Under the pieces are notes generated by a model that had not been told where the DNA came from, searched no databases, and saw nothing but the letters and a program-made list of their open reading frames with translations. A stretch of DNA of 63,999 nt, the filler included, from Folioceros fuciformis (lineage: Eukaryota): the NCBI GenBank assembly GCA_049999805.1. It is 5 parts of 4 records of this genome, joined end to end, with 100 filler letters (N's around TTAATTAATTAA, not from the genome) between each part and the next. Parts side by side here need not be neighbours in the genome. Positions count along the whole stretch, not along the records: positions 7,965 to 32,664 come from JBNGIO010006010.1; 4 more parts are not named here. One strand, 5' to 3'. Shown in pieces: positions 1 to 52,900 of the stretch. The stretch's first letter is position 1. Each line of letters opens with the position of its first letter. The translations under genes and the position numbers were made by a program.

Positions 1-78
1 GGCTCTCGTTTGCACATCGTACATATATCAATGTCCGATAATTGATACACTTCACCTCTTGGCCTTGTCCATAGTGAC

Positions 79-2757
79 TTGTGTGGACCCCTGCCGAAGT
101 CCCTCGGAGGCAAGGAGTATTTCTTGACGTTCATAGATGATTACACACGTTTTTGTGTGGTTTATTTCTTACTCCGTAAATCTGCTACTTTCTCCTGTTT
201 CTTGGAGTACATTAACTGGGCTGAGCTGCAAACAGGTCACAAACTGAAGGCCCTCAGGAGCGACAATGGCGGTGAATATATTGCAGGAGATTTCCTCAAC
301 TTCTGCAAGCAGCGAGGCATTGTCAGGCAGTTTACAAATCCGCATACGCCACAGCAGAATGGAGTGGCCGAAAACAAAAACTGGGCTCTGGAAACCATGG
401 CCTCCAGCATGTTACAGTATGCACAGCTGCCCAAATGCTATTGGGCTGAAGCTGTCGCTTATGCAGCCTACATTCAGAACCGAATATCTCACAAATCCGT
501 ACCTGGTGCCACGCCATACGAGCTATGGACGGGAAGCAAGCCTAGTGTATCTCATATGCGTGTCTTCGGTTCCAAGGCGTATGCACAGATTCCTAAAGAC
601 ATCAGACGAAAATTCGAGCCAAAGTCAAGCCCCTTCATATTCGTTGGTTTTACAGAAGGCGTAAAGGGGTTTAAGCTGCTCAACAGGCAAACTAGACAAA
701 CCGTCCACTCCCGTGATGTAGTATTTGTCGAAGGTGTAGAATCTTTGCATACAGTGGGAGCAGATGTCGGTGACTGGCAGCTCTCAGATGAAGACTCACA
801 GGATGAGGACCAGGAGATCCTTCTTGGCGATGTCCTTATGCCATTGCCAGCACCACAGACTGCAGCTCCACAAATACCTGCAGCACCGCAGTCTGTACGC
901 CCACAAACACGCACCAGATTCCAAGCACCTCCGCAGTCACAACTATCTGTACAGCAAAGACGGAGATTAAAGCATGCACATCTGGAGCCTAGGACATCTA
1001 GCAGAACACGAAGGCAGCCTGAATTCTACGAATCTGAAGATTTCAGGCACCCCAAGTCGCATTTAACATATTGCTTGGCCTCCTATTCTGCTTGGTATGA
1101 ACCTCCAACATATAAGGATGCATTGTCGTGCCCAGATGCACAGTTGTGGCAGAAGGCCATAGACTCGGAGCTGAGCTCCCTATATGAGAACAAGACTTGG
1201 GTCTTGACCAGTCTCCCACCAAATAGAAAGGCAGTAGGGAGCAGATGGGTGTTTAAAGTTAAGCTCCGGGCAGATGGCACCGTTGAGAGATACAAGGCAA
1301 GAGTTGTTGCAAAAGGCTACTCCCAAATTCCAGGAATAGATTACGATGATACCTTTAGCCCAGTGGTAAAGCTGACCACACTCAGGTTGTTCATTGTCCT
1401 GGCCGCGGTCAATGATTATGAATTGGAGCAACTTGATGTCACAACAGCTTTTCTGTATGGAAACCTGCAAGAAGACATTTTTATGCAAGTACCGGATGGC
1501 GTCAGCATCCCCCCTGACCTGCAAAACCCAGTCTGTAAGTTGCTCAAATCGCTGTATGGTCTAAAACAGAGTGCAAAGGCATGGTTTGGGAAGATAGATA
1601 CCTTCCTGCAGGAGTTGGGGTACGCAAGCTTGAATGCTGACACCAATGTATACATGAGACGTGAAGCAGGTTCCTTCATAGCTTTGGCCATATATGTAGA
1701 CGATATCATAGTCCTTAGTAATTCGCCTCGGCTGATCTTCATTCTCAAGCGTCAGCTGAGCAGCGAGTTCAAGATCAAGGAAGCGGGGGCACTTACTTTC
1801 TGTCTAGGCATGCAGTTGCAGCGAAATCGAAAAGAGGGCACGATTTTCCTGCATCAAACAAAATATGCCATGCAAATCTTAGAACGATATGGAATGACTA
1901 AATACAAGCCTATCTCTACACCTGTAGAACAAAACACAAAGTACGAAGCTCAGGTTGGAAGCATACCTGAGGATGAAGCAGCCATCGTGGATCAGTATGC
2001 CTCCAAGAACGGGTCAGTCATGCATCTTATAATAGGCATAAGGCCTGATTTAGCTTTTAGTAGCGGGCTGACCTCAAGATTCGTCTCCAACCCAAATTCG
2101 AAGCATAATGATCTGATGACGAGGCTGTATAGATACATTGCAGCCACCGTGGACTGGGGCATCCTGTATAGCTCAAAGGCACACAAAGCATTGCAAATGG
2201 TCGCCTACAGCGATGCGGACTGGGCCGGAGACTCTGACAACAGGAAGAGTATCTCCAGCTACGTTACCTTGCTAGTTGGAGGCGCCATTGGCTGGAGTAG
2301 CAGGAGGCAGCCGACTATTGCGCTCTCTTCGACCGAAGCTGAGTACAAGAGCCTCACTGAGGCATGTAAGGAGGTCACCTGGATAGTGGGAGCGCTCACC
2401 GAGCTTGGTGTACCACAGACCCTACCGGTGACTCTATTCTGTGACAATCAAAGTGCTATAGCCTTGACTATGAACCCCAGGTTCCACGCGCGCACCAAAC
2501 ATATAGAAATTCAGCACCATTACATAAGGGAAGTTGTAAATGCTGGAACAGTCAGAGTTGAGTATTGCCCGACGGAGCTGATGACAGCAGACATCTTGAC
2601 GAAGGGGCTCGGACGCATGAAGCACTATCAACACGCAACTGGGCTCGGACTCCGCGCATCAGACAAGGACTTGAGGTGGAGTTCGGCTCCAGATCCAGTA
2701 ATCAGGAAGGGCAAGGCGATGGCGGCGCGCGAAGACAAAGACGAAGATGAAGACTGA
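79..2757 (+). CDS. Copia Pol (integrase, reverse transcriptase, RNase H), partial
   Basis: Uninterrupted 892-aa ORF with IN-RT-RH order diagnostic of Ty1/Copia; an in-frame TGA at 43-45 lies upstream. Confidence 0.92.
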   Translation: MCGPLPKSLGGKEYFLTFIDDYTRFCVVYFLLRKSATFSCFLEYINWAELQTGHKLKALRSDNGGEYIAGDFLNFCKQRGIVRQFTNPHTPQQNGVAENKNWALETMASSMLQYAQLPKCYWAEAVAYAAYIQNRISHKSVPGATPYELWTGSKPSVSHMRVFGSKAYAQIPKDIRRKFEPKSSPFIFVGFTEGVKGFKLLNRQTRQTVHSRDVVFVEGVESLHTVGADVGDWQLSDEDSQDEDQEILLGDVLMPLPAPQTAAPQIPAAPQSVRPQTRTRFQAPPQSQLSVQQRRRLKHAHLEPRTSSRTRRQPEFYESEDFRHPKSHLTYCLASYSAWYEPPTYKDALSCPDAQLWQKAIDSELSSLYENKTWVLTSLPPNRKAVGSRWVFKVKLRADGTVERYKARVVAKGYSQIPGIDYDDTFSPVVKLTTLRLFIVLAAVNDYELEQLDVTTAFLYGNLQEDIFMQVPDGVSIPPDLQNPVCKLLKSLYGLKQSAKAWFGKIDTFLQELGYASLNADTNVYMRREAGSFIALAIYVDDIIVLSNSPRLIFILKRQLSSEFKIKEAGALTFCLGMQLQRNRKEGTIFLHQTKYAMQILERYGMTKYKPISTPVEQNTKYEAQVGSIPEDEAAIVDQYASKNGSVMHLIIGIRPDLAFSSGLTSRFVSNPNSKHNDLMTRLYRYIAATVDWGILYSSKAHKALQMVAYSDADWAGDSDNRKSISSYVTLLVGGAIGWSSRRQPTIALSSTEAEYKSLTEACKEVTWIVGALTELGVPQTLPVTLFCDNQSAIALTMNPRFHARTKHIEIQHHYIREVVNAGTVRVEYCPTELMTADILTKGLGRMKHYQHATGLGLRASDKDLRWSSAPDPVIRKGKAMAAREDKDEDED

Positions 2758-2836
2758 ACCCTAATTCAAGTTTCTTATAAGTTAGAGTACTTTATGTAAA
2801 TAACTTGACTATACTAACCCTGCACCTGAGTGGGAG

Positions 2837-2991
2837 TGACAGGTTATATTTAATTTTCTTTTTATTAGTTCAGGTTAGGGTTAGGGGTTAGGTGATGGTT
2901 ACAATCAATAACCGTCACCTGGTCAAGTTCATATGACATGTATCGTGACATTCTATTCAATTCCCTTCTTTATCTACACGCGAACATGTCA
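2837..2991 (+). repeat. Short (155 bp) 3' LTR of the Copia element
   Basis: Starts TGACA right after the PPT and ends TGTCA (5-bp terminal inverted repeat). The flanking Gypsy gag frame is broken at this point. Confidence 0.75.
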
Positions 2992-4042
2992 CCTCTTGCT
3001 TGGCCTTGGCTAGATCCTTTGCCTTCCTTGCTTCCTTCTTCCGCCTAGCCAGCTCTTGCTCCTTCTTCTTCAATCTTTTCTTGACAGCCTCGTCCTCCGA
3101 GGACTCCTCCTCTAGGCTGTCCCCTGCTGAAGATGAAGAGGTCTCTGCTGCTGATTCTTCTAAAGAATCGCTCTGCTCGGAGGAATCTTCATCCGAGGAA
3201 GATGTCTCCCTCTTCTTGTTCCCCTTCCTAGGCCTGTTCTTCTTCTTGTCCTTCTCCCTCACTCTCTCCTTCTCCTTCTTGGATCTCCCTTTGCCCCACG
3301 GATGAGACTCCACATAATTGAGGGCTGCCCTTATAGCCCTGTCCACATCTTTTTCTGCGAACAATTTCACATGGCCCCCCATCCTTGATCCTAAGCCTCC
3401 AGCGAACCACCTAATGGCTTGTAAGTCTGAATGAGGTCCACAACGATCCCACAGGCTGTGGAACCTCTCCACATAGCCCTGCAAGGTCTCCTTCCTCCTC
3501 CTCCTCCTCCTCAAGGCCTCCAGCTTGGACAGCACATAGCCCTCTACGTCTATCCCCCTGAACCGCTCACAAAAGGCCCTCTTCAACACATCAAAAGTTG
3601 CTGGAAATGTGCGAACCTTGAGGTACTCTCTCCTGTTCCACTTGGCAGGCCCTCCACGCAGTACACCATAGAACAATTGGATGCGCTGTGCATCCGCTGA
3701 TTCTTGGTTAGCAAGGGTCAGCTGCTCAAACCTCTCCACAAATTCATCCGGGTCCTCATACCCCTTCTTCTTCCCATACAAGGGGTTCACTTGCTTGTTG
3801 GCCATTGCAATAGCTGGGGCCGCCATGGTGCCTGCACTCACCACTGCAGTTGCGGATCCAGCAGCTCCAGCAACTGGAGTTGGGCTGATGTTGCTGAATC
3901 CTTCAGCCCTTGCACTCCTAATCACTTGCACCAGTCTAGGATGAAGACCAAGGAGTAGACTTGGATTAGGTTGCCCTGGATTAGGCCTCCTCCCAATAGC
4001 TGAAAGTTGAGGGTCTTGTTCCAACGTGATTGATTCCCCCAA
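2992..4042 (-). pseudogene. Retrotransposon Gag, truncated by nested insertion
   Basis: ORF 2957-4042 with retrotransposon gag-like motifs and a charged low-complexity tail; the last ~11 codons come from the inserted LTR. Confidence 0.75.
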
Positions 4043-4298
4043 GATCTGCTGGTTGCTTGCCCCTCTCCTCCTCCTCTCTAGTGTATGCCCTGGCTATGCC
4101 CTCCTTAGCTCCCTCTCCACTGCTCTTTGCTCACGCTCCAATACTTGCTGCTGCCTCCTTACTTGAGCTTGAGCTCCCCCTTCAAAGCTAGAGTTGAAAT
4201 CTTCAGCTCCTATGCGGGGCATCCATCAACCCTGCCACATTCCCTTGTACAGTCCCCTATCTAGGTCAGTCCTCTCCAAACCTTGACAGCAATGTCAC

Positions 4299-4316
4299 TC
4301 CCCAGCAACGGCGCCA
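4299..4316 (-). promoter_or_regulatory. Primer binding site (Athila-type, TGGCGCCGTTG...)
   Basis: TGGCGCCGTTGCTGGGGA, 3 nt downstream of the LTR terminal CA. Confidence 0.8.
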
Positions 4317-5299
4317 AAATGTGGACTGATTTCTTGCACACCCAAGAACCACCAAGGGGCCACACTTCCCCTTATTATCGTTGCAGTCTTATGATTCGCT
4401 CCCAAGGGAGTGAACTAATGTCAAGGTTACCTACATCCCCCTAATCTCACCTTATCTATCAGCATATACCAAGTGCTACAGCAATAGATCAGAATTCTCG
4501 GTCCTGTCTTCGGCTCTTACCACAAAACCAACCCCAGCCTCAACAAAATGAGAACTCCAGCATTGTCTTCAACCCTCGTTTCCATCTCCAAGTATCAATC
4601 ACTTCAGTGCTGAGAGGAGTCTCCAGCCCCAAGTCTGGCCTCCAACTCTTAGCACCTAGTGCGAGCTACCTCCGCAGTTGAACGAGAACCTCAACTTCAG
4701 CTAGCTCCTCATTCCAGCTTCAACACTTCATTCCACCACTTCAGCACTTCACCCCAGCATTTCAGTCCTTCACTTCAGCACTTCACTTCACCCTCTAGCC
4801 CCTCACGTCAGCTCAACTCCTCACTTCAATACTTCCACTTCCAAAATTTGCAACTCAACCCTTCTCTCCTGCAATTTGGAACACAACAGCCTTCCCTCTT
4901 GCAGCCTTCAAGGTAGAGGCGAGGCCTAGGGCTGGGTAACCTCCTTGGCTCACGGCACTACAACCTCACGTCGGCCAGCATGCAAGGTGGTCAGCCATTG
5001 CGGATCCGGCCACACGAATCTTGGCAGTCTTGGGATCTTCCACGTTCCCCAAGTGGCAAGGGAAATCAGGACCTTGGTTTAGTCTCAACCAGCTCAGCGC
5101 CCTAAGCCAGGAGTTCTGCACCCAAGGTCCAGGGAAATCGCACCGTAGACAGCCCCCTCCTCAATGGCAGGTCTAGCCTCTTATACTACCTTGGCCCAAA
5201 CCTCCATCTCTATGTAATAGGGTTAGCCTCAGTCAACCACCCAGCAATCTCTCTCTGACCTAAGCCGCCCCTAATTCTGACCTAACCCTAACTTTGACA

Positions 5300-6979
5300 T
5301 ACTCATGAGGAACTATGGAAATGTCACACATGCTAGGAAAATCTAGTTGAAGCAACAGTTCAACAACTTGTCACGAGGTAGCAGATCCATACTCGTGTAT
5401 ACAACAGAGGTGAAGACCATAGCTGATCAGCTTGCTATAATCGGTGCAATTGTGACGGAAGATGACATGGTTGCAGTTACTCTGAACGGACTTGGCAAGG
5501 AGTATAAGTCCTTTGACACATTAATCTCTCTGAGAGTTGAGTTCCCAAGTTGGGATGAATTGGTTGATTTGTTGCTACCTGAGGAAGTTAAGCTTGGTCT
5601 GAACACAGGTTCAGGTATATCTCGAGGGAGGGACACTGTTTTGTTTTCTAACCAGCGTGGGAGAGGCCACAGAGGTCGTGGTTCATTCTGAGGACGGGGT
5701 GATGCTCGGAACACGCAGAATCAGCAAGACAATTGGCGTGGAGGAAATGCGCAAGGCCAGAGAGAATCTAGAAGTTTTAGAGGCGTAGGTAGAACCACAA
5801 GAGGAAGAGATGGTTCTTTTCAATCTCATGACCATTCCAATAGAGACAAGGAGTGTTACTACTGTGGTAAGGTTGGTCATATTGCTAAGGACTACTATAA
5901 GCAGCAAGCAGACATGAGAGGAAAAGGAAGGCAGCATGGGACCTATGCCTCCTCTAGTAATGCTGGAAATGACCAGGATAGGTTGTTTGCCATGCAACAT
6001 CTCTCTGAACAAGATGGGCAAAATGATGAGAGATGGTACATTGATTCAGGAGCATCAAACCACATGACTCCGCATGGCGAGTGGTTTAACAAGATGGATG
6101 CAGGTCCCCATGGCCATGTTTGTACAGGAGATGACACACAACATGACATAAAGCATAGAGGAATTGTTCCTCTTAGGATGCCGAATGGTCAGCAGAAGAG
6201 TCTGCAAGATGTGTTGCATGTTCCAACCATTACGAAGAACCTATTGTCTGTTGGGCAAATGGCTGAACAAAATCTGCAGGTTCGATTCAATAAAGATGGA
6301 TGCTTTATTGAAGAAAAAGACAGAGGGCGCAATCTGATTGCTAAAGGTAGTAGGAATGGACGGATGTTCACTCTGGATGCATCCATTCCAGAGCTAAATG
6401 CAGCAATGTTTGCAAATGATGCAGGTGCCATACGTGATGTTGAAATATGGCATAAGAGGATTGGGCATGTGAACATAGAGAAGCTGAAATCTATGCAATA
6501 GAAAAGCGTGGTGGAAGGATTGCCCAAGTTCAAGTATGCTGATCTTGGTCATGTGTGTTTTGCATGTCAATTTGGAAAACAGTCAAGGTTTCCATTTGTG
6601 CGACACGTGCAGAACAGCTCGAGACCTTTGCAATTGATACACTCTGATGTATGGGGTCCTTCACAGAATGCATCGTTTGGAGAAGCCCACTACTATGTCT
6701 CCTTCATTGATGATTTCAGCAAGTACACGTGGCTGTACATACTGAAGCATAAGGATGAAGTGTTCGAGTCTTTCAAGGACTTCAAAAAGCATGCTGAAAA
6801 TGAATTCAGCTGCTCCATCTCTTGTCTAAGATCAGATGGAGGGGGAGAATATGTCTCAAATGAGTTTGACAGGTATGTTGCAGATCACGGTATACGAAGA
6901 CAACTGACTTGCAGATACACACCACAGCAGAATGGTGTTGCAGAGAGGAAGAATAGGGTAGTCATGGAAACAGCAAGGG
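5300..6979 (+). mobile_element. Degenerate Ty1/Copia element (gag, Zn knuckle, protease, GAG-pre-integrase, integrase N-half)
   Basis: Fragments ARKI*LKQQFNN, CYYCGKVGHIAKD, WYIDSGASNHM, WHKRIGH, CFACQFGKQ, HSDVWG, RSDGGGEY, QQNGVAERKNR with several in-frame stops; cut at both ends by other LTRs. Confidence 0.9.
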
Positions 6980-7864
6980 TATTAGAATAAAATACCATTT
7001 AGGCATAAATATATTATAGTAATTAAACCACCCGAAACGATATGGCTGGTGGAACCGCTTGGCTTGGCTTGTTTCTGGCTAGCCACTATTGGTATTGGTA
7101 TAGGCATTATTACAATCTTTAGTACTCTTTTTTTTTCTTGTTTTTTTTTGGAGCAAATAATAATATAATCTCAAGAGAAGACAACATATTTGTAATCTTT
7201 CTTTGGAGTAGAGAATTTCATAATAAGATATAATATTAGTTAATATTAATAAATATCTCTAGATATTTTATCTACATATATGTAGGAAAAAAAAACTCTT
7301 ACTGCATTCTTGGAAAGAGTGACGTGTTAATAATGGAGGGACGTAGGGTTTAGGGTGGCTCCATGATTAACACTACGTAGGTAGATGGGTAGACTCAACT
7401 ACAATACCTAGACCGTAGGTATCTTGCAAATGTGTGGTAGAGGGTGGTTTGGACCCATGGTTGTCTTGGTTGCAAAAACACTCATGGATACGTCACTTTC
7501 TTTGCTACCTCCAACCTGGTTGGTTTGCACAGGTGACCCGACTCCGAGTCCGACTCATGAAGACCAAGCAAGAAGCCAGGAAGCAAGAGGAATTTGACTT
7601 ACTTTCTTGTTGTTTTTGTTATTCGTAACGTAACTCCTTTTCATGATACATATTAAGCTTGCCTAGTTTTTAGGGTGTGTGTGCATATTATTATTGTTAT
7701 TGTAAGACACTTCCATATGAACAAAGCATTTTACTTTGCACGCTACTCTTAGTTTACATCTCTGACATGGTATCAGAGCCATGCAGATACGCCTAGAGGA
7801 ATTCTGGAATCATGCCGAGACGCAGTGCATCTTCTAGGGGCAGACACGGATGCAAATCTTTCAG
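6980..7864 (+). mobile_element. 5' LTR (~6980-7767) and tRNA-iMet PBS of a further LTR element, cut by contig end
   Basis: TATTAG...CTGACA ends (decayed TGTTAG/CTAACA), followed immediately by TGGTATCAGAGCC at 7768-7780; interrupts the Copia integrase frame. Confidence 0.7.
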
Positions 7865-7964
7865 NNNNNNNNNNNNNNNNNNNNNNNNNNNNNNNNNNNN
7901 NNNNNNNNTTAATTAATTAANNNNNNNNNNNNNNNNNNNNNNNNNNNNNNNNNNNNNNNNNNNN
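7865..7964. other. Artificial contig linker (N44-TTAATTAATTAA-N44)
   Basis: Identical stop-codon spacer recurs at 32665-32764, 49038-49137 and 61884-61983. Confidence 0.97.
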
Positions 7965-8237
7965 AAACGCCACTAGGTTGCAAGTTGCAAGAATGAATGG
8001 CTAGAAGACAGTTACAAGCAAGCGGGATACTAAACGGGAGAAGCTGCTGAGCTAGAGATGCTTACGATCTCCAAGGCGGGTTAGGGATCACGAAGCAAAA
8101 TGAAGACCACTGAAGTGCTTCTTCCTCAGTCACTATCCGTGTTCGGAAATTCAAAGAAACGCCACTAGGTTGCAAGTTGCAAGAATGAACGGCTGGACGA
8201 CAGTTACAAGCAAGGAGGATACTGAACGGGGGAGGTC
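7965..8237. repeat. ~80 bp imperfect direct repeat (7965-8043 and 8157-8237) in the ndhM intron
   Basis: AAACGCCACTAGGTTGCAAGTTGCAAGAATGAA... occurs twice. Confidence 0.85.
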
Positions 8238-8336
8238 AGGTGAGACACGATCACTGTTGACAGCACACGAGCATGTTGACATGTAGTTTAGGATATGCAA
8301 GCAATGCAACAGGGGTTTTCGGAACAGGTGACTCAC

Positions 8337-8738
8337 GGCGTAGTTGTCCACCAGCTCTGTAAAGTACGCGTACACCTGTTTCTCCTTATCCTCGGGCCAA
8401 ACGAACTCATTGTCGGGATCCAGGATGAGAGACAGCTTGCCGAGCTTCTCATCGGACTGGTCCAGAATTCTGGTCTCGGGATTTAACTCACCGGCGAAGA
8501 GGCGCACATGCCTAGTGGTGCAGCTAAGCCAGCGGCCTCCCTGCTGCTTGGACAGTCCGGATCCCTCCGCTGCGACCTTCAGCGGCTGCCATCTCCGGCT
8601 CTTGCTGCTCCCCTCAGACACACCTATTGCCAAACCCTGGCCGCAAAGTTGCCCGCGCTGGTGAATGCCTGTGGAGGAACACTGAAGGCTCCCGCGCGCA
8701 AGGGCCACGCTCTGCTGAGCGGCTACCACACCTGCCAT
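8337..8738 (-). CDS. ndhM: NAD(P)H dehydrogenase-like complex subunit M, chloroplast precursor (exon 1; rest missing at contig end)
   Basis: Transit-peptide-like N-terminus, then WLSCTTRHVRLFAG...LSLILDPDNEFVWP...YFTELVDNYA; GTGAGT donor at 8336. Confidence 0.85.
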
Positions 8739-9227
8739 CCCCACACTGCCAAAATCCTTCCAATGCAGCTACGCCCGAGCTGCCCCTGCTACGCCAGCCT
8801 GCATTAAGGAGACCTGTTCCACAACGGCCACGACGCAAGATGGAACCGCAGATGGATAATTCGCCGCGACGGGTACGCCGATCCAAGTGCCAGGGTTTCA
8901 AAGCTTCAGCTGACATACACTCTGGAGGTTGGGCTTGACCTTCTAACTGGATAGGCTTTTGTCTGGCCACCATTGCATGGAGCGTCATCCTCCTGAGATC
9001 GCACTCAGTGGTTCATTATTATCATAAGACCATAACACTCTCTTCTGAGTAGAATAAATAATCTAGAATTGCTTTTTAGGCCACACCAATTCAGGGCTAC
9101 CGACGATCAAAATCATCGTTCGGATGCCCTAACTCCAAGGTGTGTAATCAACTGCACTACAGCAGAATTTAAGAAAAAATTAGACGTCAACAAAATCAGA
9201 TACGGTTGAGCCGATAAACAAGTCAGG

Positions 9228-12200
9228 TCATCGCCGCTTCAAATGCTGCAACAAAATGACTGCCGCTGAATCCTTCGCCTTCTTCACACTGGGCATCGGC
9301 TCGCCGACGTACTCTTCAGTCCACCCCTGATCTGTCGTGTGCACACGAACAGAATAGGTGAACCTCTTGGCGTGTGCTGGACCACCTTCAGTCACGCATC
9401 TGCACAGCGCGTTACAGTAACCGGCATTAGGAGATAATGGAGCGTGCGGAGAGCAGTCAGTCGGAGGAGGAAAGCGCTCGGGAGTTGTAATGCTTACTTG
9501 TACTGGGGCATGGGCCACTGCCGTCGAAGGCAGATGTCGTTCAAAGTCTGCCTAGTGAAAACAGGGGTTTTCGTTGTCTTCCCTGATTCGGCGGCAACAG
9601 CCTTTTGCGCTTCCGCTTCGTTCAGTTCCTTTTCCTTCAGTATGGCCAAAGCATTTCTTGCAGCCAACTTTTGAGCCATTTTCTTCTGAGGGTTCTGTGC
9701 AATGCCGATTTGCACGCCATCCACATATACCTCAACTGTGGCCACATTACCTTCACGGGTGGCCTTGTACTCCAGACCCTCGGCTTGCTGCTGGCAACGC
9801 TCCTGCAGCTCCCGGACAGGGTGCATGGGTAGTGTTTCCGGAGTCACCATGGGTTGTAGGAGGGGTTCAAAAACCTATAGGAAAGGCAGTTAGCAAAAGG
9901 GAAAACAGTGCTGAAGGCAGACAACTATGTTAAGTTACATAACAGGTAGGAGGGACACCTTCCACACGCCGTCTGTGTCGAGGCCGTTGTCAAGGAAGAT
10001 TGCTCCGGCCACTGACTCCAGAATATCCCCAAGTACCTTCGGCGCTTTAAAATCACCCAGCCCAAATGAATTAACTCCAGGCTTGTCTAATTCACTTTGG
10101 ATATCCTTAACAAAATCTCGGATCTGAAGCAGAAACAAGAACACAAATGGAAACCATTAGCTCGCAACTTCAGTCCAGGCGGACAAGGATTCAAACATTC
10201 TGTCAGAAAATGCATCAGACAACATAGACAGTGTGAGTTCACCTGAGTCTCCAAAGCACTAGACCCATGCCGTAAATGCACGTGAAGCTTATTCTTCACG
10301 GTGACACGGGCAAAATTTTCGTTGTTGACAGCAGCCGCTCGCAAGTCTGTCAACCGACCTGGAGGAAGGTCTGTATAGCTGAAGAAGAGATGACGAGTGA
10401 TCAGATGGTCTAGTACAGCATCCCCAACAAACTCTAGTCGCTGATAACATGGCACTCCGGAGGATGGCCGAGAGGCATGTGTTATTGCTTCGACGAGGAG
10501 ACTCTTCTCCCTGAATGGGTAACCAATGGCAGCCTGTAGCCCATCAAAGTCTATGCTTCGGGCAACCGTCTCTGGTACAACAGAACCGGCCCTTGCTTTC
10601 TGGCTATCTGTTTCATCGAAATCCACGGGTATCCCAATCCAGTTCATCACATGTGCTGCAGCTTCTTGGCCACCCTCAACATAGTAGATTCCAATGAGCG
10701 CCTCCACAACATCAGCAAGCGTTTTGCTTGAAAGCACCCGATATGAACTAGAATCCCCCTCTATCTCTCCGTCCTCCATAGCTTCTGAATCATCCTCGAT
10801 TTCCTGAATGTCACCATTCTCCGCCCCAACCACCTTGATAGTATCTTTTTGCTGATGATGAACCATTTCACCATCCTCTGTCTCCATCTTGTCAACTTCT
10901 TGCACCTCCTCAGTAACCGGAGGAGATGACCAATCTGCATCTTTAGTGTCCTCATCAAAGACAGGGAGGACCCCAGGTGCAGCCCAACGGGATGGAGCAA
11001 AACGATCAGCCTGTATATAACTTTGCAACCCTTTCTCGAGTGCAAATTGATACAGTACTGAATTACTGACTGTTTGCTGTCGCATACGTGTTAGCTGTCC
11101 CTCATGCTTACTTGGAAACTTCAGAAACAGCCGACGACTGACCACCCACTTCAGGTATGCATCGCCCAACAGCTCAGCACGTTCATAACAGAATGTCTCC
11201 TGGCATGAAGCTGCAGTTAATGCCTCTAACACCTGTCACACTCACACCCCACCTCAGATACTTTAAAGTCCTCAACCTGAGTACACCTTGAGGACAGGAG
11301 AGAATGTGCAAGTAGATAAATGATGACAGAATTGCCCATAATCGTAGTAGACGAATACTTTGAGAAGTCTTACATGCCCATGCAGATCTTGACCTATGCA
11401 AGAAGTCTCACAAGTGGAACGGACTATTACCTTGGCTGCTGGAATAGGGTAGGCAATCTGGTGCTTAAGCTGAATGGCCAGCAACATACTCTCGACCCTT
11501 CTCATTACAGAGGGCAGACGCTGAGCACCTCGTACTAACGGACCTGGCAAAGGGTGTACAAGGCACAACTCTGGGGGCAACATGACGAAGTATGTCTTGT
11601 CCAGCTGCTCATCAGCACTGGTAGCATTACCTGGATTCCAATTTACAACATTATTGTATGGGCATTCCGATAGAGAACAAGTTCTAACAAAGACTAGTGG
11701 CATGGACAACAACACTTCTGCTAGTTTCCTTATGACCATCTCCACGGACCAAAACCTACCATCAGTAGACTCAAATCGAGGGGAAAGCAGGTTCTTGCAA
11801 TGCGAAACCCCTCTGCCCCTAAGGAGAGCTTGAGTTTTATAGCGAAGATCAACACCATACCTGCAATACAGGTGCAAGAAAAGTGAGCAACTAGCTCAGC
11901 ATCAAAAGCCTGGGTAGGAATGCACAACATCAACATCTACAGAGAAGGTTACTTTTGCTTGTAATAATCCCCGTAAGTGCTGTATTCTAGAGGACCCAAA
12001 TATCCTTCTTTCCTTGGGAAGGAACTATTGGCATTCATGTCAACTCTCACAGAGTCAACATAAAACCTCTTTCCAGAATGCACCGCTGTGACAATCCTCC
12101 CAGCTAGGCCATCAATGTCAGCCACACCATCTGCCATCCACAGCTTGCCAGGCTCAGGAATTGAATCCTGTATGATGGACGCAGAGTCTCGACCAGGAAC

Positions 12201-15200
12201 AAGACCTGACGCCTTTACAATATCATACTTCGCAACAGCTCCACGTATTCCATAGGTGGGATGGGCTTTCTGGCCCAGAGAATAACCATGACGCAGTTTT
12301 CCAAATCCATATTCTCTGCGATCGCCACCAAGAGCGCGCTCATCTGTTCCAAGATAGACATCTGGACGGGCCCTTTGTAAAGGATTGGACCAGGCTCTCG
12401 TGTCAAGAGTTTCCTCAATATATTTCCAATCAACAAGGGCATCTCCATCTGATGTGCCTTGAACGATGGGGACAAAAAGATAGGCTTTCACAGGATCCCA
12501 CGGGGTTGTTGCTGGTTCAACATCAATGTCGAGAACAATACTCATCAACCTGACATGGAAGCTCTTTAGCTTGTCTAGCTGCACAAAGCACAAACAGACA
12601 TCTGCAGTTAGCAGGTTGAACAGAAGCCAACCAGAGGCGCACTGAGCAGAGGTGTACCCTTCTTGGTATGAAGCCAGTCACCTGGGATGCATCAACTTCC
12701 AGCGAACCACAGTGATGGAGAGATGCTCTTGTCGTCATAGTTCTTGAGACAAACAAATCCATTGACATTGCCAGAACCTGGACGGAAAAAACAGTATTGC
12801 CAATCCGTCAAGCACTGAGGCCAAGACTACCCCTTCAAGGCTGAAGTTATAGGAATTTGAGAAAACGATGCAGTTCAAAACCATGCAACTATAAAATTGG
12901 AACACTGACCTCAGGATCCACTTCTTTGTCAAAGAGCAGCGCGAAGTCACATGTTTCCGTCAGCAGAGAATCTCTAGAAAACCCCATGTTCTGGCAAGAA
13001 ACCTTGTAGAAAGATAGTGACCATCTCTCTGTAAGGTCTTTTCCACCAAGAATCCAATCCCCCTGGAAGAGACAATATTATGAACACTTCAAACTGGCAC
13101 ACAACCATGACTTCTGCAACCAATTGCAAACCGAACACATAAGTTACCCACCCTTAGAACCTCAGCAATTCCCTCAGGATAATATTCCCTGTGACGTGCA
13201 GTTCCAGGTAGGGGTTCGCCTTCCTCTGCCTCATCCATCTTTTCAGCTTCTTCTCCACTCCCCTTATCCGGTAACAGCATGTCTGTAAATGCTCCCATCT
13301 CATGCAGCTTCTTACATGCTTCAAGGCATACGGCCTGCAGCAGGAGAGCGTTAGATGGAACCTGGGAACCATGTCACACAACAGGGAAGCATGAACAATC
13401 AGTTGTGCATCATTTCCCACCTGCTGTGCACCTCGAATAGATGAGCACACTGGACCCTCAATAACTCCAATAGGCGCATTACATGGTAGCTGCAACTTGC
13501 AGGAGTATTTTGGAGCCCCATTTTCTTTGTCAATTTGGGTCATAAAAAAATCCGGTCGCAGAATCGAGTATCTAATAATAAGGACAAGTAAGCCAAGCAC
13601 AGGACTAACGGATCCAGAACGTTACCAAATGACCATGTCGGAAGATATCACAGGACAGTGATAGCAAATACCTGTCACTTGGCAGCTGCGAGCAGTAGAA
13701 GTGAATCAGCCCCACCGCAGAATTCCGGCTGACTGTGGCACCAGTTGAAGGAACCTGATACACATCACCACCATCTGGTTCCGATGGTTCAAATGCTTTA
13801 AAGTCAAGACTTGTCCTCTCAACAGCTTCTTTCCGAAGGGTTTCCTCACTATTTCGAGCATTTCGCAGAAAAGCCTCGTGAGTCAAGTTGCCTCTGTAGA
13901 CATCCAACAACCATTTAAGTACCACCACGTTAAGTCAACTACTGACATGCTACATGCTGTTACTCCCACAACATTCAACTTCTTGCTTACTTCTCCAACA
14001 TCAGAATGTAATCTGAACCCGGCTTACGAGCACGACCTCGTGACTGAATATACGCAAGCACAGTCTTGGCTAGATCAAAACGAATCACCACATTGCACTG
14101 CCGAATATCCAAACCTTCTTCAGCAACACTTGTGGCCACGAGCAGCGTAACCTAAAAATGACAGAGCCACCTTGAGATCAGCCCCTGAGAGATGTGGTTT
14201 CCATTTCTTCCATTGACGTCAGCCAGTAGAAAATCTACATCAATTTTGGCAATACACCCAGATGAACATTTGGGTGTACATCCAAAATATACATAGATTT
14301 TCACTTCTTCGACAGAGTCGATCCCTATGGCAACAGTCGTGGCAGTCAAGGGAGTCTCCTGCGTTGACAAAAGCAACTTGGTGCTCCGGTAAGGGTTGTA
14401 GTACCCCGTCATGGATAAATGGAACCAAATACCATCATGGAATACGGATTCCCCCATCGCGGGTTAGTGCACTGTCGTGTGTCATGATGGGTGCTTGCGA
14501 AGTCACGCAACAACCCCATCACGCGTTACTAGTATCCCATCACAATGCTTTGAGCAAGCATACTTGAAACAACATCCAACAATCCCCAATCTAAACCAAG
14601 GAACACTACGAAGTGAAAATAAGAAACCACACACCCTTCCATCACGAAACTTCGAAATTGTCTCTTGCATTTGCCGCGTCCGCATATCTTGATTATTGTT
14701 GTGCCCGATGAGGCTTGCGCACTTCACAAATTTCAAGGATGGCAACTCGGCAAAAACCTGTAAAAGAAATTTTGCAACCAGAATACCATTCAGACAGAGA
14801 CAAACACAGATAACGCCACTTTCCACTCCCTAGTTGATCGATATTTATGCCACAGTGGACATGTACCTTAGGAAGGACCAAAGCAGCAACGACCCGCTCG
14901 ACAAATATGATAGCTCGGAAATCATCAGTGTGTTGATAACTTAACAATATCTTGATCAGGGCCTGCACCTTTGGTGTCACCCTGCCACCTGCCACGGCTG
15001 CTCCAAGAATCTCATCCACATGCTCGCCCCCAGAAACAGCTGCAAGTTCGGTAGACAAAAGTTAGCACATGCAACAAATTGAATGACCTACGTCCACTGG
15101 GTATTCGTAAGACTGGATAATGTCTAAGCTGCCAACCTTGGATGTCAGGAAGCTCGCCATCCTCAACTTCACCACCACCTTCGACTTCATCCTCCACCTC

Positions 15201-17081
15201 TCCTGCATCTTTGCTCCCGACAGCCCCTTCAGAAAGGCGGCATCGGAGAATGTCAACGACCTTCTTCAGGTAGGACTCTTGGAATTTCACATCAAGCTGA
15301 TGATTCGCACGTTCATCATTTCGTAGGGCGGTGAGAAATGACAAGGCTACCTGGCATGCAGAGATAGGACCACTGTCAATCGGGGGAGCTCAACAGGATC
15401 ATAGGCTGATGATCCAGACATACAATTCTGACCTGAGAATACCTACCTTGTATGCACACCACTGACCAAGCTCATCAAGAGCATAGACAACAGCGCGTAA
15501 CTTTTGTCCCAAGCTCGCAGCACCATCACTCTCCGTCCTCTCTGAAACTCCATACACCAAACGAAGTTCCTCTTTTGAGCCAGCATCTCTAGCACCCATG
15601 AATCTCCACTTACTTCGCTTAGAGCTTTGACTGGCTGCTTGTTCAACAGTAGACTCCATACTCTTAATCTGCTCCCGTAAGGACCATAACACAGCGGCCT
15701 TGTCATACTCTACCACAGTTTCTGACGGTGTTGGCACGTACATCTCCAATTCCTTCCTGTCCTTAATTGTGCACACAATAGAATCAAGCTTGCTCTCCAG
15801 ATTCCGAATCTTTACTGCACAATCTTCCTGGTTGGACACGCCTGCATTGACAAATGCCGCTGCCGTCAAAGGGCCTCTCTCCGTATACATGGTTGCCTGC
15901 ACAAAGTTAAATGCACATACCCTTCAAGTTGACTGGGGACGCTGTCATGCCGAAAACTGCAGGCCTCTTCGTTTTGCTGGTCATGTGGTAGAACTCAGAC
16001 ATCACCAACGAGTAAGGATGCTTTTTGACAGCATGATGACATTCGTCCAGGATAAGGAGATCGATAGATTCCATTCTGACAATGCTATGCCTCAAGATGT
16101 TCAGCAGAATTTGGGCAGTCATTACAAGGACCTGAAGGCACGACAAGGAAGAGCTGAGAGACACAGAAGCTGTGAAATAGATCAAAGTCAACAGTGTGAC
16201 GGTCAACCACATACTTCATTGGTTTCAAACTCCCGCTGCCACCTTCTTGGATCCCAGAAATCTTGACCCATCTCACCACAGTAGTGTCCCACACTGAAAC
16301 CTGTCCCTTCTCGAATCACTTCTGCTTGCTGCACACAAAGGGTGCACGGATCTGATTACAACTCTCCCTCAACAAGCCAGACAGCGAAACAAACTCACGA
16401 TCCACAGCGTTCCTACGAGCTTCCGTCACCTCCACATGAACTACATACCTGGTAAACCAGCGGCACCTTCGGCACGAGAAACACCGCCAGCATCTTCTCC
16501 CCATTCTGTCGCATCATTTCATACTTGCTCTTCATCAGCATGACTGCTATGAGAGTCTTACCGGCCCCCGTCTCAAGAAACGCGATAGTGTTCTTCTCCT
16601 GAGCCTGTCCCAACACCTCTAGCTGATACTTCCTGGCACATTCATCCCCCGACTTCTCCTTCTCGGGAGCCACAGGCTTAACAGAGGAGCCATTAGCAGC
16701 TGCCAATTCATGCACCCTGTCCCTGACCCTGTCTCTGTCCCGATCCCTGTCTCGATCTCTGTCCCACTGTTTCTCCCTATCCCGCTCCCTGTCCCTGACC
16801 CTTGCTCTTTCCCGTTCCCTCTCCCGCTCGCCATCTCGGGGTCGCAACCGATCCCGCCGAATAGGCAACGCCCTTCTCTCCCTCTCCCTGTCCCTTAGCC
16901 TTTCACTATACCTATCTCTATCACGATCACGGGCGAAATCGAAAGCTCTATCGCTTACGTGCCCACTCCTTCGAGATCCTTCGTCTCTCAGCTTCCTTCG
17001 CTTGTCCTCCCTCTCTGAATTGCCTCCGCCTGCCCTCCCGCGCTTCAGCTCCCCATTCCTGTCCACCTCCATGCTGTCCAT
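9228..17081 (-). CDS. DCL1: Dicer-like 1 (multi-exon)
   Basis: Exons encode an RD/RE-rich N-terminus, DExD helicase ([23 protein letters not shown]), HELICc (ATSVAEEG), DUF283 ([13 protein letters not shown]), PAZ, RNase IIIa ([12 protein letters not shown]), RNase IIIb ([12 protein letters not shown]) and two dsRBDs ([20 protein letters not shown]). Additional 5' exons are possible. Confidence 0.96.
14229..14302 (-). ncRNA. Candidate pre-miRNA hairpin in DCL1 intron 7
   Basis: Two 35-nt arms (14230-14264 and 14267-14301) pair in register with G:U wobbles and about 5 mismatches; located in the unusually long intron 14152-14634. Confidence 0.55.
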
Positions 17082-18235: not shown

Positions 18236-18486
18236 CAAAGCCATGATGCATGGCCATGCCAAAAGACCCACAACTACTACCAAGCATAGTGTGTTGAGCC
18301 ATGATGCATGGCCATGCCAAAAGCCACAACTTCCCAGCATCATATGTTAAGCCATGATGCATGGTCATGCCAAAAGCCACAACTACCAAGCATCGTGTGT
18401 TGAGCCATGATGCATGGCCATGCCAAAAGCCATAACTGCCAAGTATAGTGTGTTGAGCTATCATGCATAGTCATGCCAAAAGCCAA
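18236..18486. repeat. Tandem repeat, ~53-58 bp unit, ~5 copies
   Basis: GCCATGATGCATGGCCATGCCAAAAGCCACAACT...GTGTTGA repeated. Confidence 0.9.
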
Positions 18487-18917: not shown

Positions 18918-19181
18918 TGAAGATTTTGCAATATCACTTTGAATAGAGCAGCACCACTGTGTAGTGATTAACATGAGTATAATGTGGTGTGGTATAGATA
19001 GTTATTAACTAATGAACCATGCATGAGTATAACGTGGTGTAGTATAGATAGTTATTAACTAATTAATGAACTAGGCATGAGTGGAGATTTTGCAATATCA
19101 CTTTTAATAGAGCAGCACTACTATGCAGTGATTAACATGAGTATAATGTGGTTATAGTTATTAACTAGTGAACCAGACATG
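18918..19181. repeat. Local imperfect duplications
   Basis: GATTTTGCAATATCACTTT...CATGAGTATAATGTGG occurs twice and CATGAGTATAA..ATAGTTATTAACTA three times. Confidence 0.8.
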
Positions 19182-19739
19182 GTACGATAACTACGATGTG
19201 TAGTGACATAGTTTGACACAAACTAGCAATTCTTTCTTGAGCATGAGTGTAAATGAGCTGGAAATGGCCGAAAGATAGCATGATCAAAAAAAAGATTCAA
19301 TTGCTTTTGCTTAAGGTGCTTCTCAACAAAGAAGTTTAAAGTCTATGAATCTTTATAGGGGAAAGTGATGAAACGTAAGGCATAGCAACCTTGTTTTAGT
19401 CGAAAGAAAACCCCTTGCAAAATTTTGGAACACTTGCAAAAGGAATGCACCCTCTTCAACATTAAGGATTCTTGCGAAGGGAAGACACCCTCATGGATAA
19501 TTCAGATGTAAGATCCATATATGCAAAAATTCTAATCTCTTTAAATGCAATAGGATATGTAAGCAAAAACAAAAGAGCAAAAGTGCTCTTGTACCATACC
19601 ATAATGAGAATAATAAACTAGCTCAAAGGATGCATATTGCAATCTATCTTGTGATAGCGAATACATGTCTTTAAATAAGCAAACTAGTTATAATCATAAG
19701 GTAGTTATAAATAATAAAATAACTATTAAATTAAACTAC

Positions 19740-20004: not shown

Positions 20005-20410
20005 ATGCATCTGATTATGGCATGTCTAGTGTCTAGTGTATCTGATTTGGGAAAAGTCTTATGTATCTGATTATGGAAAAGTTTTATCCACATGATCTCA
20101 TGTCTAGTGTCTAGTGTATCTAATTTGGGAAAAGTCTTATGTATCTGATTATGGAAAAGTTTTATCTACATGATCTCTCGTTCTTATGTATCTGATTATG
20201 GAAAAGTCTTATCCACATGATCTCTCGTCCTGCAAGGAAGAGGACATAAAGACATGTCCAGTGTATCTAATTAAGGAAAATTCTTATCCACATGATGTCT
20301 CGTCGTGCAAGAAAGAGAACTTTTGCAAGAAAGAGAACTTTAGGCCATGTCTTCTATATCTGATTATGGAAAAGTCTTATCCATATGACCTTCCGTCTTG
20401 GAAGGAAGAA
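20005..20410. repeat. Degenerate tandem repeats (ATGTATCTGATTATGGAAAAGTCTTATCCACATGATCTC core)
   Basis: Core repeated about 7 times with variation. Confidence 0.8.
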
Positions 20411-40985: not shown

Positions 40986-41215
40986 CGTCTCCCGCGTATC
41001 TCAGCTCCTCCTGCCATCTCCGCCTCGGGTTAGTTTAACCCGCTTGGATTACTTTCCTGACTTTGGTTACAAATAAGGGTCAGGTCAGGTTAGGTTAGGT
41101 TAGGGTAACTGTATACGAATAGTAAAGGTGTGCCTGCCTACCTACAAGGAGGAGGAGGTTCGATCAAGGCGTTCTTTTCTGAGCGCGAGGGGGCCAGGAG
41201 TTCGGCGGCAGGGAG

Positions 41216-41836
41216 ATGAAGCACAACAACGTCGTGCCGAATGGCCACTTCAAGAAGGACTGGCAGAACTACGTGAGGACGTGGTTCAACCAGCCGGCAC
41301 GTAAGAAGAGAAGACGTCTTGCGAGGCAGAGGAAGGCTGTGAGGATCTTCCCGCGGCCGACGGCGGGGCCGCTGCGACCTGTGGTTCACTCGCAGACGCT
41401 GCGTTACAACAGCAAAATCAGGGCGGGACGCGGGTTCACCCTGGAGGAGCTGAAGGAGGCAGGGATCAGTAAGAAGCTGGCCCCGACCATCGGAATTGCG
41501 GTGGATCATAGGAGGAAGAACCGGTGTCTGGAGAGCCTGCAGGTGAACGTGCAGAGGCTGAACGCGTACAGGGCGAAGCTGGTGGTGTTCCCCCGGCGGG
41601 GGAAGAAGACGAAGGCTGGGGATGCCACTCCCGAGGAGCTGAGCTCCGTGACTCAACTGCAGGGCCCTGTTTTGCCGATTGTGAAGCCTCGGCCTGAGGT
41701 TGGACTTGTGGAGGTGGACACGGACATGACGGGCGGGAGCGCGTACAAGAAGCTGCGGGTGGAGAGGATGAACGAGCGGCTGGTTGGGAAGAGGAAGGCG
41801 AAGGCAGCGGAGGCAGAGAAGGAGGAGAAGAAGTAG
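41216..41836 (+). CDS. RPL13: 60S ribosomal protein L13 (eL13), intronless CDS
   Basis: [34 protein letters not shown]...[12 protein letters not shown]...VDHRRKN; intact 206 aa. Confidence 0.97.
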
Positions 41837-41839
41837 ATG

Positions 41840-41961
41840 TTTTTTTCGAGGAGGAGTAGAGGGTTTTTCGAAGAGAAGTAGAGGTTTTTTTCGAGGAGGA
41901 GTAGAGGGTATTTCGAAGAGGAGTAGAGGTTTTTTTCGAGGAGGAGTAGAGGTTTTGTCGA
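41840..41961. repeat. ~23-24 bp tandem repeat x5 directly after the RPL13 stop
   Basis: TTTTCGAGGAGGAGTAGAGG and TTTCGAAGAG(A/G)AGTAGAGG units alternate. Confidence 0.9.
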
Positions 41962-42772
41962 CAGGATGGGTCAAATTGGGACTCAGATGTTGTGGTGCTT
42001 CATTTTTGAAAGATTTTGGCACCTGCACGCCTTTCGTTTTTCGTGTGGTGATTCCTGCAAGCTGCAGAACGTACTTACTGCGAGGTTTAGTCCTCTCTGA
42101 TATTCAACAGACCTTTGCTGCCGAGCGATTCTTCTTCTGGCTCCTTTGTTGGATGAGTGAAGGAAATGTCTTTGTTTCTGGATGTAGGTTTAGGGGTGCA
42201 TGTCTAGCAGAGTGAGTGTCCCCGTACCCCCGGTGCTTTGCTGATGGAAAGGCTAAAACTTGTTTAGCTTTTAATGATCCCCTTAGTTCATTGGCCCGAC
42301 CGCCTCCCACCGTTGTCAAGCTTAGTGCTTTCGGTTTATGCGATGTTCGTTGTCAGTCTTAGGGCTCGTATCCCGGGTGTGGCCCAGCAATTGAACGTGC
42401 GTTGTTTCACTTGCATACGAAGAGTGGGTCAGGCAACGATGGAACTCCGCGCGTTTGGAGAGAAACAAAAGCTGGGTGTTTGGAGAGAAACAAAAGCTGT
42501 CTGATAATGATAACATTCACAACTTGTTGAAGAGTTCTCTTAGTTGTCGTATAAGTGAAAGCGATACATCCAGGCAGTGCCCGCATTTACAAATCAATGA
42601 CTGTATTGCTCCCCATTCTCATACGGGAGGTGAAGTATTTCCGGTGAGATGTACTAAAGTTACATACGAGACCAAAAAAAAAATTGCACCCTCTCCAAGT
42701 CGCATAGGTCTTCAAATTTGCGCTATGGCAACTATGGTGCAACCCTGGAACACATTAGATCAGTTAGGAGTG

Positions 42773-49940: not shown

Positions 49941-52900
49941 AGGATAGTCCGCTGGTGGAATCCAATCTGCTGTGACAATAGAAGGATCAAGATTGGGCAA
50001 GTGGCAAGGTGCGCAATTCTTGGTGTGGTCAGTGGTGATCCGACCATCTGAGCCTTGCAATACCAGGATGCCATTAGGCTTGACCTCCTAAATCCGCAAC
50101 ACATGCCGACTGCTAGAAGTGTCCAGGGCATCTGAGGTCTGCCTCTGCAGGTAAACAAAGTCTCCTACCTGGAACTTCCTGAGCTTGGGCCTAAAACTGC
50201 CTCCCCTAGTGTGTGCATAACGAAGGGTATCCCTATGCTGGGCAATGTGCAAGTTAGCCATTGCCATGGGCATGGCCTGTTTGAACAAGGCTGCCCTGTT
50301 ACCTATCACACGTGCCCATGTAGCTGCATCATCCAGCTTGACAACTTCTAGCATTTGTTTGGCTATAGAACTAGGTGGAATTGGTTCTCTGCCAAACAAG
50401 AGGAAGTAAGGGGAAAAATGGGCAAGGGCAGCATGCTTGCTCATGCGGTAACCCATTGCAATATATGGAAGCATGAGATCCCAATCTGTTTTGGGTTCTC
50501 GGAGACACAGCTTGCGAAGCCCCTTCTTCATAGTCTGGACCATGCGCTCGGCTAAGCCATCAACCTGCGGGTGGTCCCGGCTAGTTCTCCTGTGGTCAAT
50601 AAGGGCTGCATCCATTAGATCCTGGAATTCTCCTCGAAACTCAGAACCCTGATATGTGAGACACTCTGCGCAGCCACCAAACCTACTGAGCACACATTGT
50701 AGGAAGGCTTGTGAGGTACTCCTAGAGGTCTTGTCTGGCAGGGCCACTACCTCCACCCACTTGCTGAAGTGTTCCATCATGATCATCGCATACAGGTTGC
50801 CTCGTGGAGACTGCGGGAGCTCACCCATCAGGTCGCATGACCATCTGAAGAATAAACCCATGATGGGCAAAGGGTGCAGCTCTGGGTGCTGCATGGTGAA
50901 GGAAGCCTTGACACGGTCGCATTGCTCGCAACAGGCTACTCGTTCCTTCACTTGTTCATGCATTCGATTCCAGTAGAAATAGGGAGTCAACAGGCTGTAG
51001 GTGCGTTTGACCCCAAAATGACCCATGTCATCATGCACCCTTTTGATGAGGGCAGCACGATCTGCTGGTGGGGGTACCAATCGCTCCACTCCTTGAGCCT
51101 GTTGACGGATGAGATGTCCGTCCCGCCAACAATACTTGGTAGCCCGTTGGTGAACTCGTTCCCTTGTGGCCGCGGTCCAAGTGGGGTCCTCTCTACCTGT
51201 CTGCACATACTGAAGGGTAGCTGGATCCTCCCAAATATCCTTGGAGGATTGCTGAGCTGCACCTACAGGCACCTGTCCCAAGCAAGTCATGGCCACCAGA
51301 GCCGATACGGCAAGCATTGTGCTGTACTCTTCATCTTGGCGAGCTCCAGTGGTATCCACACAACTGCTGTCAGGATTTCGTGACAAGGTATCAGCATTCT
51401 GGTGCTTCACTCCTGGCCGATGTTCAACCTGGAATTCGTAATCTTGAAGGATCATGGCCCAATGTGCGAGTTTGCCACTGAGCTTGGTGTTGGTCATCAG
51501 CCACTTGAGTGGTTGATGGTCTGTCACGAGTGTGAACTTCTGACCATATAAATATGGTCTGAAGTGGCACACTGCCCACACAGCAGCGAGGCATTCACCC
51601 TCGTAGCTGCTATAGTTGGCTTCAACTCGATTGTTGCTACGCAAGGCGTAAGCAACCACACGCTCACAACCTGCTTCATCCTGTTGAGCCAGCACAGCCC
51701 CTAGCCCTAGACTACTCCAATCTGTGTGAACTACAAAGGGCTTGTTAAAATTGGGTCTGGCCAACATTGGTGCAACTGTTAGCTCCAGCTTTAAGGTGTC
51801 AAAAGCTTGTTGTGCCTGCTCTGCCCATGTCCACTCTACATCCTTGCGCAGCAGATCATTAAGAGGCTTGGCAATCCTGCTGAAATTGGGTATGTATACT
51901 CGATAGTAATTGCATAACCCTAGAAATGAACGCAGGGCTGATACGGTGGTCGGTTCCTTAACCTGCATAATTGCCTGAACCTTGGCAGCATGTGGGGTGA
52001 CACCATTGGGGACAATTTTGTGACCCAAATACGCCACAGTGCTCATGCCAAACTCACACTTGGCTGGGTGGCACGTGAGTTGTGCCTTCCGTAATCTTAT
52101 AAACAGGTCTTCCAGGTGTACCAAATGATCCTTGAAGTCCATGCTGTGGACTAGCACATCATCAATGTAGCACATGAGATAGCCGGCTCCAGCTAGTACT
52201 ATGTCCATGATGCGCTGAAAGGTCACTGGCGCATTCTTGAATCCAAAGGGCATCACTAGCCATTCCCATAGCTGTTGAGAACCATGGAAGGCTGTCTTCT
52301 TGATATCTTCAGCTGCCACTGGGACCTGGTTAAACCCTTGTCGCAGGTCCAGCGTGGAGAAGAACATAGACTATCCAAGACGGTCAAAGATCTCCTCTGG
52401 TGTTGGCATTGGGTACCGATCCTGGGCAGTTACTGCATTGATGGGCCTATAGTTGCCACACATCCTCTTCTCAGTCCACAAACCCTGACTGTCCTTTTTG
52501 GGTGGCATCACAGTGGTAGCAGCGTAGTCACTGTTAGAGGGACGTATTAGGTTCGCCTCATACAGCTCCTTGCATCTTGCATCCACCATGTCCCATTCCG
52601 TCTTGCTCAACCTATACCGTCGCCTGTATACAGGCTCTTGGGTGGTAAGGTTGATGCGAAAGGTTGTGACATTGCACCTCTTGAGCTCATGCATGGAAAA
52701 GGCAAAACAGTCCCTGTACCTAAGCAGCAAGTTACGAATGCGGTCCTGTTGCTTCAGACTGAGTTCTGAGCCCATTTTCCACGGGAAATTAACAGCAGAC
52801 AGCTTGGGTGTAGCTCCTGGATCCTCCTTTTCTGCCTTGGCTTGATCAGATGCTGAGTAAATAGTACGTGATGCCAATACTGCGTACTCCCCCCCCCCAG

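Follow-up and report, generated by a model that had tools for sequence, protein, structure and literature searches.

Intron 7 of the DCL1 gene of Folioceros fuciformis carries a hairpin that is real, rare, single-copy and shaped like a miRNA precursor. It lies in the stretch of DNA that was analysed (63,999 nucleotides, filler included; hereafter the window), and positions are those of the window unless a locus is named. By analogy with MIR1047 of the moss Physcomitrium patens, the hairpin is probably a cis-acting feedback site at which DCL1 cuts its own unspliced pre-mRNA. The mechanism is already known, and the gain would be evolutionary: a third DCL1 intronic hairpin, in a lineage that is neither moss nor liverwort, and one that apparently occupies the same intron as its moss counterpart.

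The DCL1 gene and the fold of its intron 7

The DCL1 model (Table 1) is a single, intact open reading chain with GT-AG ends at 19 of 19 introns. Profile matches were obtained for RNase III on exon 17, for helicase C on exon 8, and for DEAD/ResIII on exon 1, the last scoring under the Pfam cut-offs. Among the splice joints listed from contigs of public runs (X1-X4), we found those of 14 of the 19 introns and of intron 3; the spliced exon 7-8 joint was absent among them. One X1 contig spans 16449-17170 unbroken, and therefore no intron lies within 89 nt 5' of the start codon. Searched against the assembly, exon 8 is matched at 100% by one site and at 66% and 60% by the next best, so that this is the sole DCL1-type gene found there. 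Over exon 17, the protein shares 77-78% identity with liverwort DCL1, 74-75% with that of mosses and Diphasiastrum, and 72% with that of Selaginella. In a tree of 15 rows (the window protein and 14 of the 120 listed matches, with three liverworts included and neither a hornwort nor an algal row), the window protein fell within none of the clades formed by mosses, liverworts and euphyllophytes, nor in any supported group, leaving room for a lycophyte placement.

The preliminary description had claimed that intron 7, at about 480 bp, is far longer than the other DCL1 introns, and the gene model bears this out, since the other 18 measure 79-198 nt each. The second longest, intron 16 (11233-11430; 198 nt), has a best 74-nt fold of -25.1. 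Across the 18 introns, the best 74-nt folds range from -7.3 to -25.1 kcal/mol, against the -33.9 kcal/mol of intron 7.

Table 1 Features of the DCL1 gene and its intron 7 hairpin (window positions).
Feature	Position	Strand	Description	Basis
DCL1 coding span	9228..17081	(-)	20 exons, 1819 aa	Gene model, contig joints, domain matches
Exon 7	14635..14757	(-)	Ends ...ISKFRDGR	Gene model
Intron 7	14152..14634	(-)	483 nt, phase 0, between ISKFRDGR and VTLLVATS	Gene model
Exon 8	13991..14151	(-)	Starts VTLLVATS; helicase C-terminal domain	Gene model, domain match
Core hairpin	14229..14302	(-)	5' arm 14302-14267, 3' arm 14264-14229; 74 nt, -33.9 kcal/mol	Folding
Lower stem extension	14218..14334	(-)	14305-14303/14225-14227 likely (0.67-0.84); 14334-14329/14224-14218 weak (0.40-0.49)	
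Predicted 5p strand	14269..14291	(-)	14291-14271 or 14289-14269, both start U	Stem geometry, duplex energies, 15-17 bp rule; prediction
Predicted 3p strand	14238..14260	(-)	14260-14240 (starts U) or 14258-14238	Stem geometry, duplex energies; prediction
Predicted partner of the 5' splice site region	14189..14202	(-)	Partner 14636-14622; pair probability 0.7-0.93	

The core stem is free of bulges and interrupted by two symmetric 2x2 loops; it includes three G:U pairs, and its pair probabilities are 0.93-1.0. Its arms, described beforehand as pairing at about 30 of 35 positions including G:U, pair at exactly 30 of 35 (14301-14267 with 14264-14230), in perfect register around a 2-nt centre. Of the wider hairpin that had been proposed (14213-14322), the core is firm and three further pairs are likely, but the outermost pairing is weak (Table 1). 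The sense strand folds at -35.1 versus -29.0 for the antisense strand, with an MFEI of 1.16-1.25. The segment 14200-14335 gave a z score of -4.80, with 0 of 200 shuffles folding as well, a value that is inflated because the segment was chosen around the stem; folding of the whole intron, which the preliminary description had put forward as a check, gave a z score of -3.12, with 0 of 100 shuffles as good.

The stem is separated from the splice sites by 332 nt on the 5' side and 77 nt on the 3' side; splicing therefore does not set the ends of the hairpin, and a mirtron was rejected. The MIRNA criteria of Axtell and Meyers (2018) reportedly call for a fold-back of at most 300 nt and a duplex in which no more than 5 positions are mismatched, with a limit of 3 in asymmetric bulges. 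They accommodate the fold of intron 7, with its 74-nt stem and with candidate duplexes that have 2-4 mismatched positions, symmetric loops and no bulge.

Copy number and sequence change in relatives

We scanned for in-register stems with 30 of 35 positions paired, at least 25 of them Watson-Crick. The intron 7 hairpin was the sole stem to pass in 191,207 non-N bases (the window and 20 stretches), and no further stem passed in another 165,243 non-N bases (20 stretches of the same genome), the scanned total of 356,450 bases being a non-random sample of 0.4% of the assembly. Run less strictly on a Brassicaceae-like DCL1 locus (L003), which served as a positive control, the code picked up a 30/35 stem (28 Watson-Crick) at 5253-5369, in intron 14 by our numbering; by its position and sequence, we take this stem to be MIR838.

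Searched as a whole, intron 7 gave one DNA match in the 87-Mb assembly, in a search that skips very common words. In a search of unspliced sequence for one 21-mer per arm, with G:U counted as a mismatch, neither had another site in the assembly at 1 or 2 mismatches, and their 3-mismatch matches were at chance level when set against a reversed control (3 vs 1 and 1 vs 3). With the hairpin single-copy, neither a family of miniature inverted-repeat transposons (MITEs) nor a repeat-derived siRNA locus is indicated. Among the five short repeat families found, there was no direct repeat flanking the stem. No Rfam family reached its gathering threshold in the window, where eight weak matches at E up to 10 were returned (best 23 bits vs 90).

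Several other features of the window and the genome were recorded. Short tandem-like repeats were seen by eye upstream of DCL1 (18260-18480, 18990-19200 and 20010-20400). An intronless ribosomal protein L13e frame (PF01294) lies at 41183-41836 (+), with overlapping long open frames on the opposite strand (41466-42103, -). A Ty3/gypsy-type element at 50088-57140 (-) joins a protease and a C5 cytosine methylase match (PF00145, E 3e-5, 24 bits vs a cut-off of 22) in one 1410-aa frame, followed at a distance by reverse transcriptase, RNase H and integrase; methylase-bearing retrotransposons have been reported from charophytes and dinoflagellates (PMC5890265). Elsewhere in the genome, an intron-split LCIB gene (L081, G000:C1919:3950-4891) shows two PF18599 matches above cut-off on one contig and a likely transit-peptide exon. 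LCIB is reported in hornworts and in no other land plants (PMC8075897), which agrees with a hornwort source.

We then compared intron 7 with contigs from 4 of 22 listed public runs (X1-X4), all of them assembled and presumed to be RNA, with only contigs at least 80% alike considered. Such contigs show no molecule ends, strand or level, and the hairpin itself can break cDNA or assembly; gaps in cover (11459-14347 in X1, and over exon 7 in X3) carry no evidential weight. The 3' half of intron 7 is little changed in contigs of three related organisms. In X3, contig 14 (527 nt) runs from 14299 through the stem, the remaining intron 7 and exon 8, and the 222 letters left equal the length of exon 9. 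Over exon 8 and 14152-14299 it differs by 7 substitutions in 304, versus 216 in 3002 in seven listed exon pieces (Fisher p 0.0004), a comparison weakened by exon 8 being a slowly changing exon; its 6 gap letters form two indels (14183-14187 and 14212), both outside the stem. An X2 contig over 14087-14380 spans the whole stem with 10 changes in 289, where the other four X2 pieces that contain introns have 83 in 1093 (p 0.012); 20 inserted letters are unplaced and may fall in the stem. Against the neighbouring piece over intron 8, the difference is not significant (10/289 vs 15/288, p 0.32), and the 5' part of intron 7 differs in X2 at 6 of 30 positions. A 5-nt indel shared by X2-X4 sits just outside the pairing predicted between 14636-14622 and 14202-14189.

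The contigs also bear on how intron 7 is joined to its exons. In X4, contig 17 (3786 nt) carries the 14183 deletion and holds exons 20 to 8 in spliced form, continuing from exon 8 into intron 7; its end, by arithmetic, falls near 14218, short of the lower end of the stem by about 11 nt and below the predicted cut by about 20 nt. In X1, which is near-identical to the window, a piece reaches from the end of exon 7 to 14348, which is 46 nt above the stem, and the 5' contig of this run ends at the point where spliced and unspliced forms diverge; X1 also retains intron 16, wholly and in one contig. Dicing would be expected to leave such a pair, one 5' piece that ends above the stem and one 3' piece that begins below, and we take this as a weak hint. 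Intron 7 sequence joined to spliced exons in two contigs (X3 and X4, whose strand contigs do not give) is likewise a weak hint, of either retention or cleavage. Since X3 starts at 14299 and X2 crosses the whole stem, some molecules are uncut; introns 4, 5, 8, 9 and 10 are likewise kept in X2, which may therefore be pre-mRNA or DNA. A second DCL1-like transcript in X4 (contig 18, 3828 nt, about 83% alike) belongs to a paralogue or to another plant in the sample.

Proposed self-cleavage and its alternatives

In the mechanism that we propose, the DCL1 complex would take the stem for a pri-miRNA while intron 7 is still unspliced, making a first cut about 15-17 bp above the stem base and a second 21 nt higher. 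Cutting would divide the DCL1 pre-mRNA into a 5' piece with exons 1-7 and a 3' piece with exons 8-20, neither of which encodes the enzyme, and the freed small RNA would be a probable by-product. Much DCL1 would favour cutting, and little DCL1 would favour splicing. From its base to the loop, the stem of about 35 bp offers a lower stem of 15-16 bp followed by a 21-nt duplex up to the loop; DCL1 is reported to cut 15-17 bp from the stem base (PMC9864873), and we count the fit of this unbulged stem to that rule in favour of DCL1 feedback. The predicted 21-nt duplexes pair 14291-14271 with 14258-14238, or 14289-14269 with 14260-14240. The feedback hairpin of the preliminary description keeps its precursor-like shape, its single copy, an intron segment little changed in relatives and its precedents, from which we infer the DCL1 cleavage, the cut sites, the competition with splicing and the effect on DCL1 level.

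The other known route of DCL1 feedback runs through miR162, whose site in Arabidopsis is reported at the exon 12-13 junction of DCL1. This junction differs in Folioceros from that of the Brassicaceae-like locus at 8 of 22 positions (compared by eye, 22 nt presumably being the extent of the site), and the miR162 route therefore looks absent, as it is in moss. None of the 19 introns of a Salvia DCL1 has such a hairpin, and the device is therefore dispensable in some plants.

Four alternatives were weighed against DCL1 feedback. A structured intron could slow splicing without any dicing, and retained transcripts would then stop at codon 44 of the intron (14505), the first stop in frame, and be degraded or kept nuclear. 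The intact stem joined to spliced exons in the X3 contig would suit such a delay, as would a masking of the 5' splice site by the downstream segment of Table 1; this pairing is marginal, however, with 23 of 500 shuffles as strong and intron 10 at -18.7 versus -17.1 here, and a delay would leave both the precursor geometry and the placement in DCL1 itself unexplained, so we regard it as unlikely. Unlikely too is a young or neutral inverted duplication (a proto-MIR) that arose in DCL1 by chance and has no regulatory effect. Arms in perfect register around a 2-nt centre are the product expected of a local fold-back duplication, 3 of 1000 dinucleotide shuffles of intron 7 attain the 30/35 pairing of the hairpin, and the other introns of X2 are fairly conserved as well; against this stand the want of a second such stem in the bases scanned and the little-changed intron 7 segment where exons differ by 7-10%, with the three G:U pairs favouring the transcribed strand, although they are too few for a test.

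The hairpin might also be an ordinary intronic MIRNA that silences another gene in trans, with the DCL1 intron a mere host. Many liverwort pre-miRNAs are intronic (PMC9291395), both candidate strands can start with U while forming a duplex with two mismatched pairs, and low sequence change would suit a functional mature strand. Neither 21-mer has a 1- or 2-mismatch site in the assembly within the scope of the search given above, and we judge this improbable; it is compatible with DCL1 feedback all the same, since any dicing before splicing would also destroy the DCL1 message. MITEs are a known source of plant hairpins, and the enlargement of intron 7 would agree with a MITE remnant, an origin that the preliminary description had named as telling against its own reading. 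With one whole-intron match (very common words skipped), arms at chance-level matches and no flanking direct repeat, we hold such a remnant to be highly improbable.

Intron 7 hairpins and known DCL1 systems

The numbering of the Folioceros DCL1 introns agrees with that of Arabidopsis at two landmarks, intron 14 and the exon 12-13 junction (via the Brassicaceae-like locus), and 19 introns are reported to be common in DCL1 genes. Moss DCL1 has the same context at the exon 7-8 junction, as compared at the protein level. A metagenome scan with exon 8 returned two plant DCL1 loci (L002 and L003) among 79 listed of 345 confirmed, both angiosperm-like by eye. In L003, intron 7 has the same codon position, is about 88 nt long and contains no stem. 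Two Dicer-like paralogues (L110 and L111; G000:C3625 and C6060) have an intron of about 100-120 nt, by eye, at the site that matches intron 7, with no stem at 27/35 or better. These shared short introns suggest that the site is old and that only the DCL1 copy was enlarged.

Should the Folioceros and moss introns prove orthologous, the device may be older than the divergence of hornworts and mosses. We offer as a tentative and rather doubtful reading that an intron 7 self-cleavage hairpin was ancestral to hornworts and mosses, perhaps to all land plants, and was kept for more than 400 million years by position and shape alone while its sequence turned over fully. Were this true, the conserved function would be the cut in cis, to which the small RNA would be incidental; in angiosperms, miR162 and an intron 14 hairpin would have taken the place of the intron 7 hairpin. 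The choice between convergence and common ancestry becomes answerable by aligning intron 7 over bryophyte, lycophyte and fern genomes, and the hairpin points to a class of regulatory RNA that may lie beyond the reach of sequence-based miRNA searches.

In the reviews consulted, DCL1 autoregulation through an intronic hairpin is taken to have arisen independently twice, in intron 14 of Arabidopsis and intron 7 of Physcomitrium (PMC3565333, PMC4429486), and only these two hairpins are named (PMC9291395, PMC10721683, PMC3565333, PMC5569507, PMC4788410). A hornwort DCL1 intronic hairpin is reported nowhere in the literature searched, which took in few subscription papers and neither bioRxiv supplements nor the Anthoceros angustus list deposited in Dryad. 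The Dryad list holds 180 novel Anthoceros angustus miRNAs (PMC7027989), and may already contain the locus without a link to DCL1. Four 14-nt words from the arms were absent from 2 supplement files of PMC7027989 and 4 of PMC5569507, and two such words from 8 supplement files of PMC7111516; these absences say little, as the relevant miRNA list is elsewhere.

The precedents named in the preliminary description, MIR838 and MIR1047, are supported by the literature (PMC4429486, PMC10721683, PMC3565333): ath-MIR838 lies in intron 14 of Arabidopsis DCL1 (Rajagopalan 2006, via PMC4429486), and ppt-MIR1047 in intron 7 of Physcomitrium patens DCL1a (Axtell 2007 and Arif 2022, via PMC4429486, PMC3565333, PMC10721683 and PMC11799827). 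By its sequence, the Folioceros hairpin belongs to neither family. miR1047-3p (query from the supplement of PMC4957126; the 3p strand alone compared) matched intron 7 at no more than 12 of 21 positions, which is also the commonest value among 1000 shuffled queries. A local alignment of the intron 7 hairpin with that of L003 scored 18 (9 matches). The 'miR1047' of PMC4702150 and PMC5869740 were set aside as unrelated names.

Mirtrons are likewise intronic hairpins, but differ in having their ends set by splicing. MIR838 shares with the Folioceros hairpin the same logic and a similar unbulged lower stem (30/35 in L003); it differs in lying in intron 14, whereas intron 14 of Folioceros is 92 nt long and unstructured, and in that Arabidopsis also has the miR162 route. 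With MIR1047 the difference is that processing and function have been shown in moss, where PpDCL1a rises and the plants become hypersensitive to salt once MIR1047 is deleted (PMC11799827, PMC10721683), and that here we infer them. The likeness to MIR1047 extends to a hairpin in the intron numbered 7 of a miRNA-making DCL1, to a bryophyte host, to the apparent lack of a miR162 site, and to the same proposed logic of dicing versus splicing.
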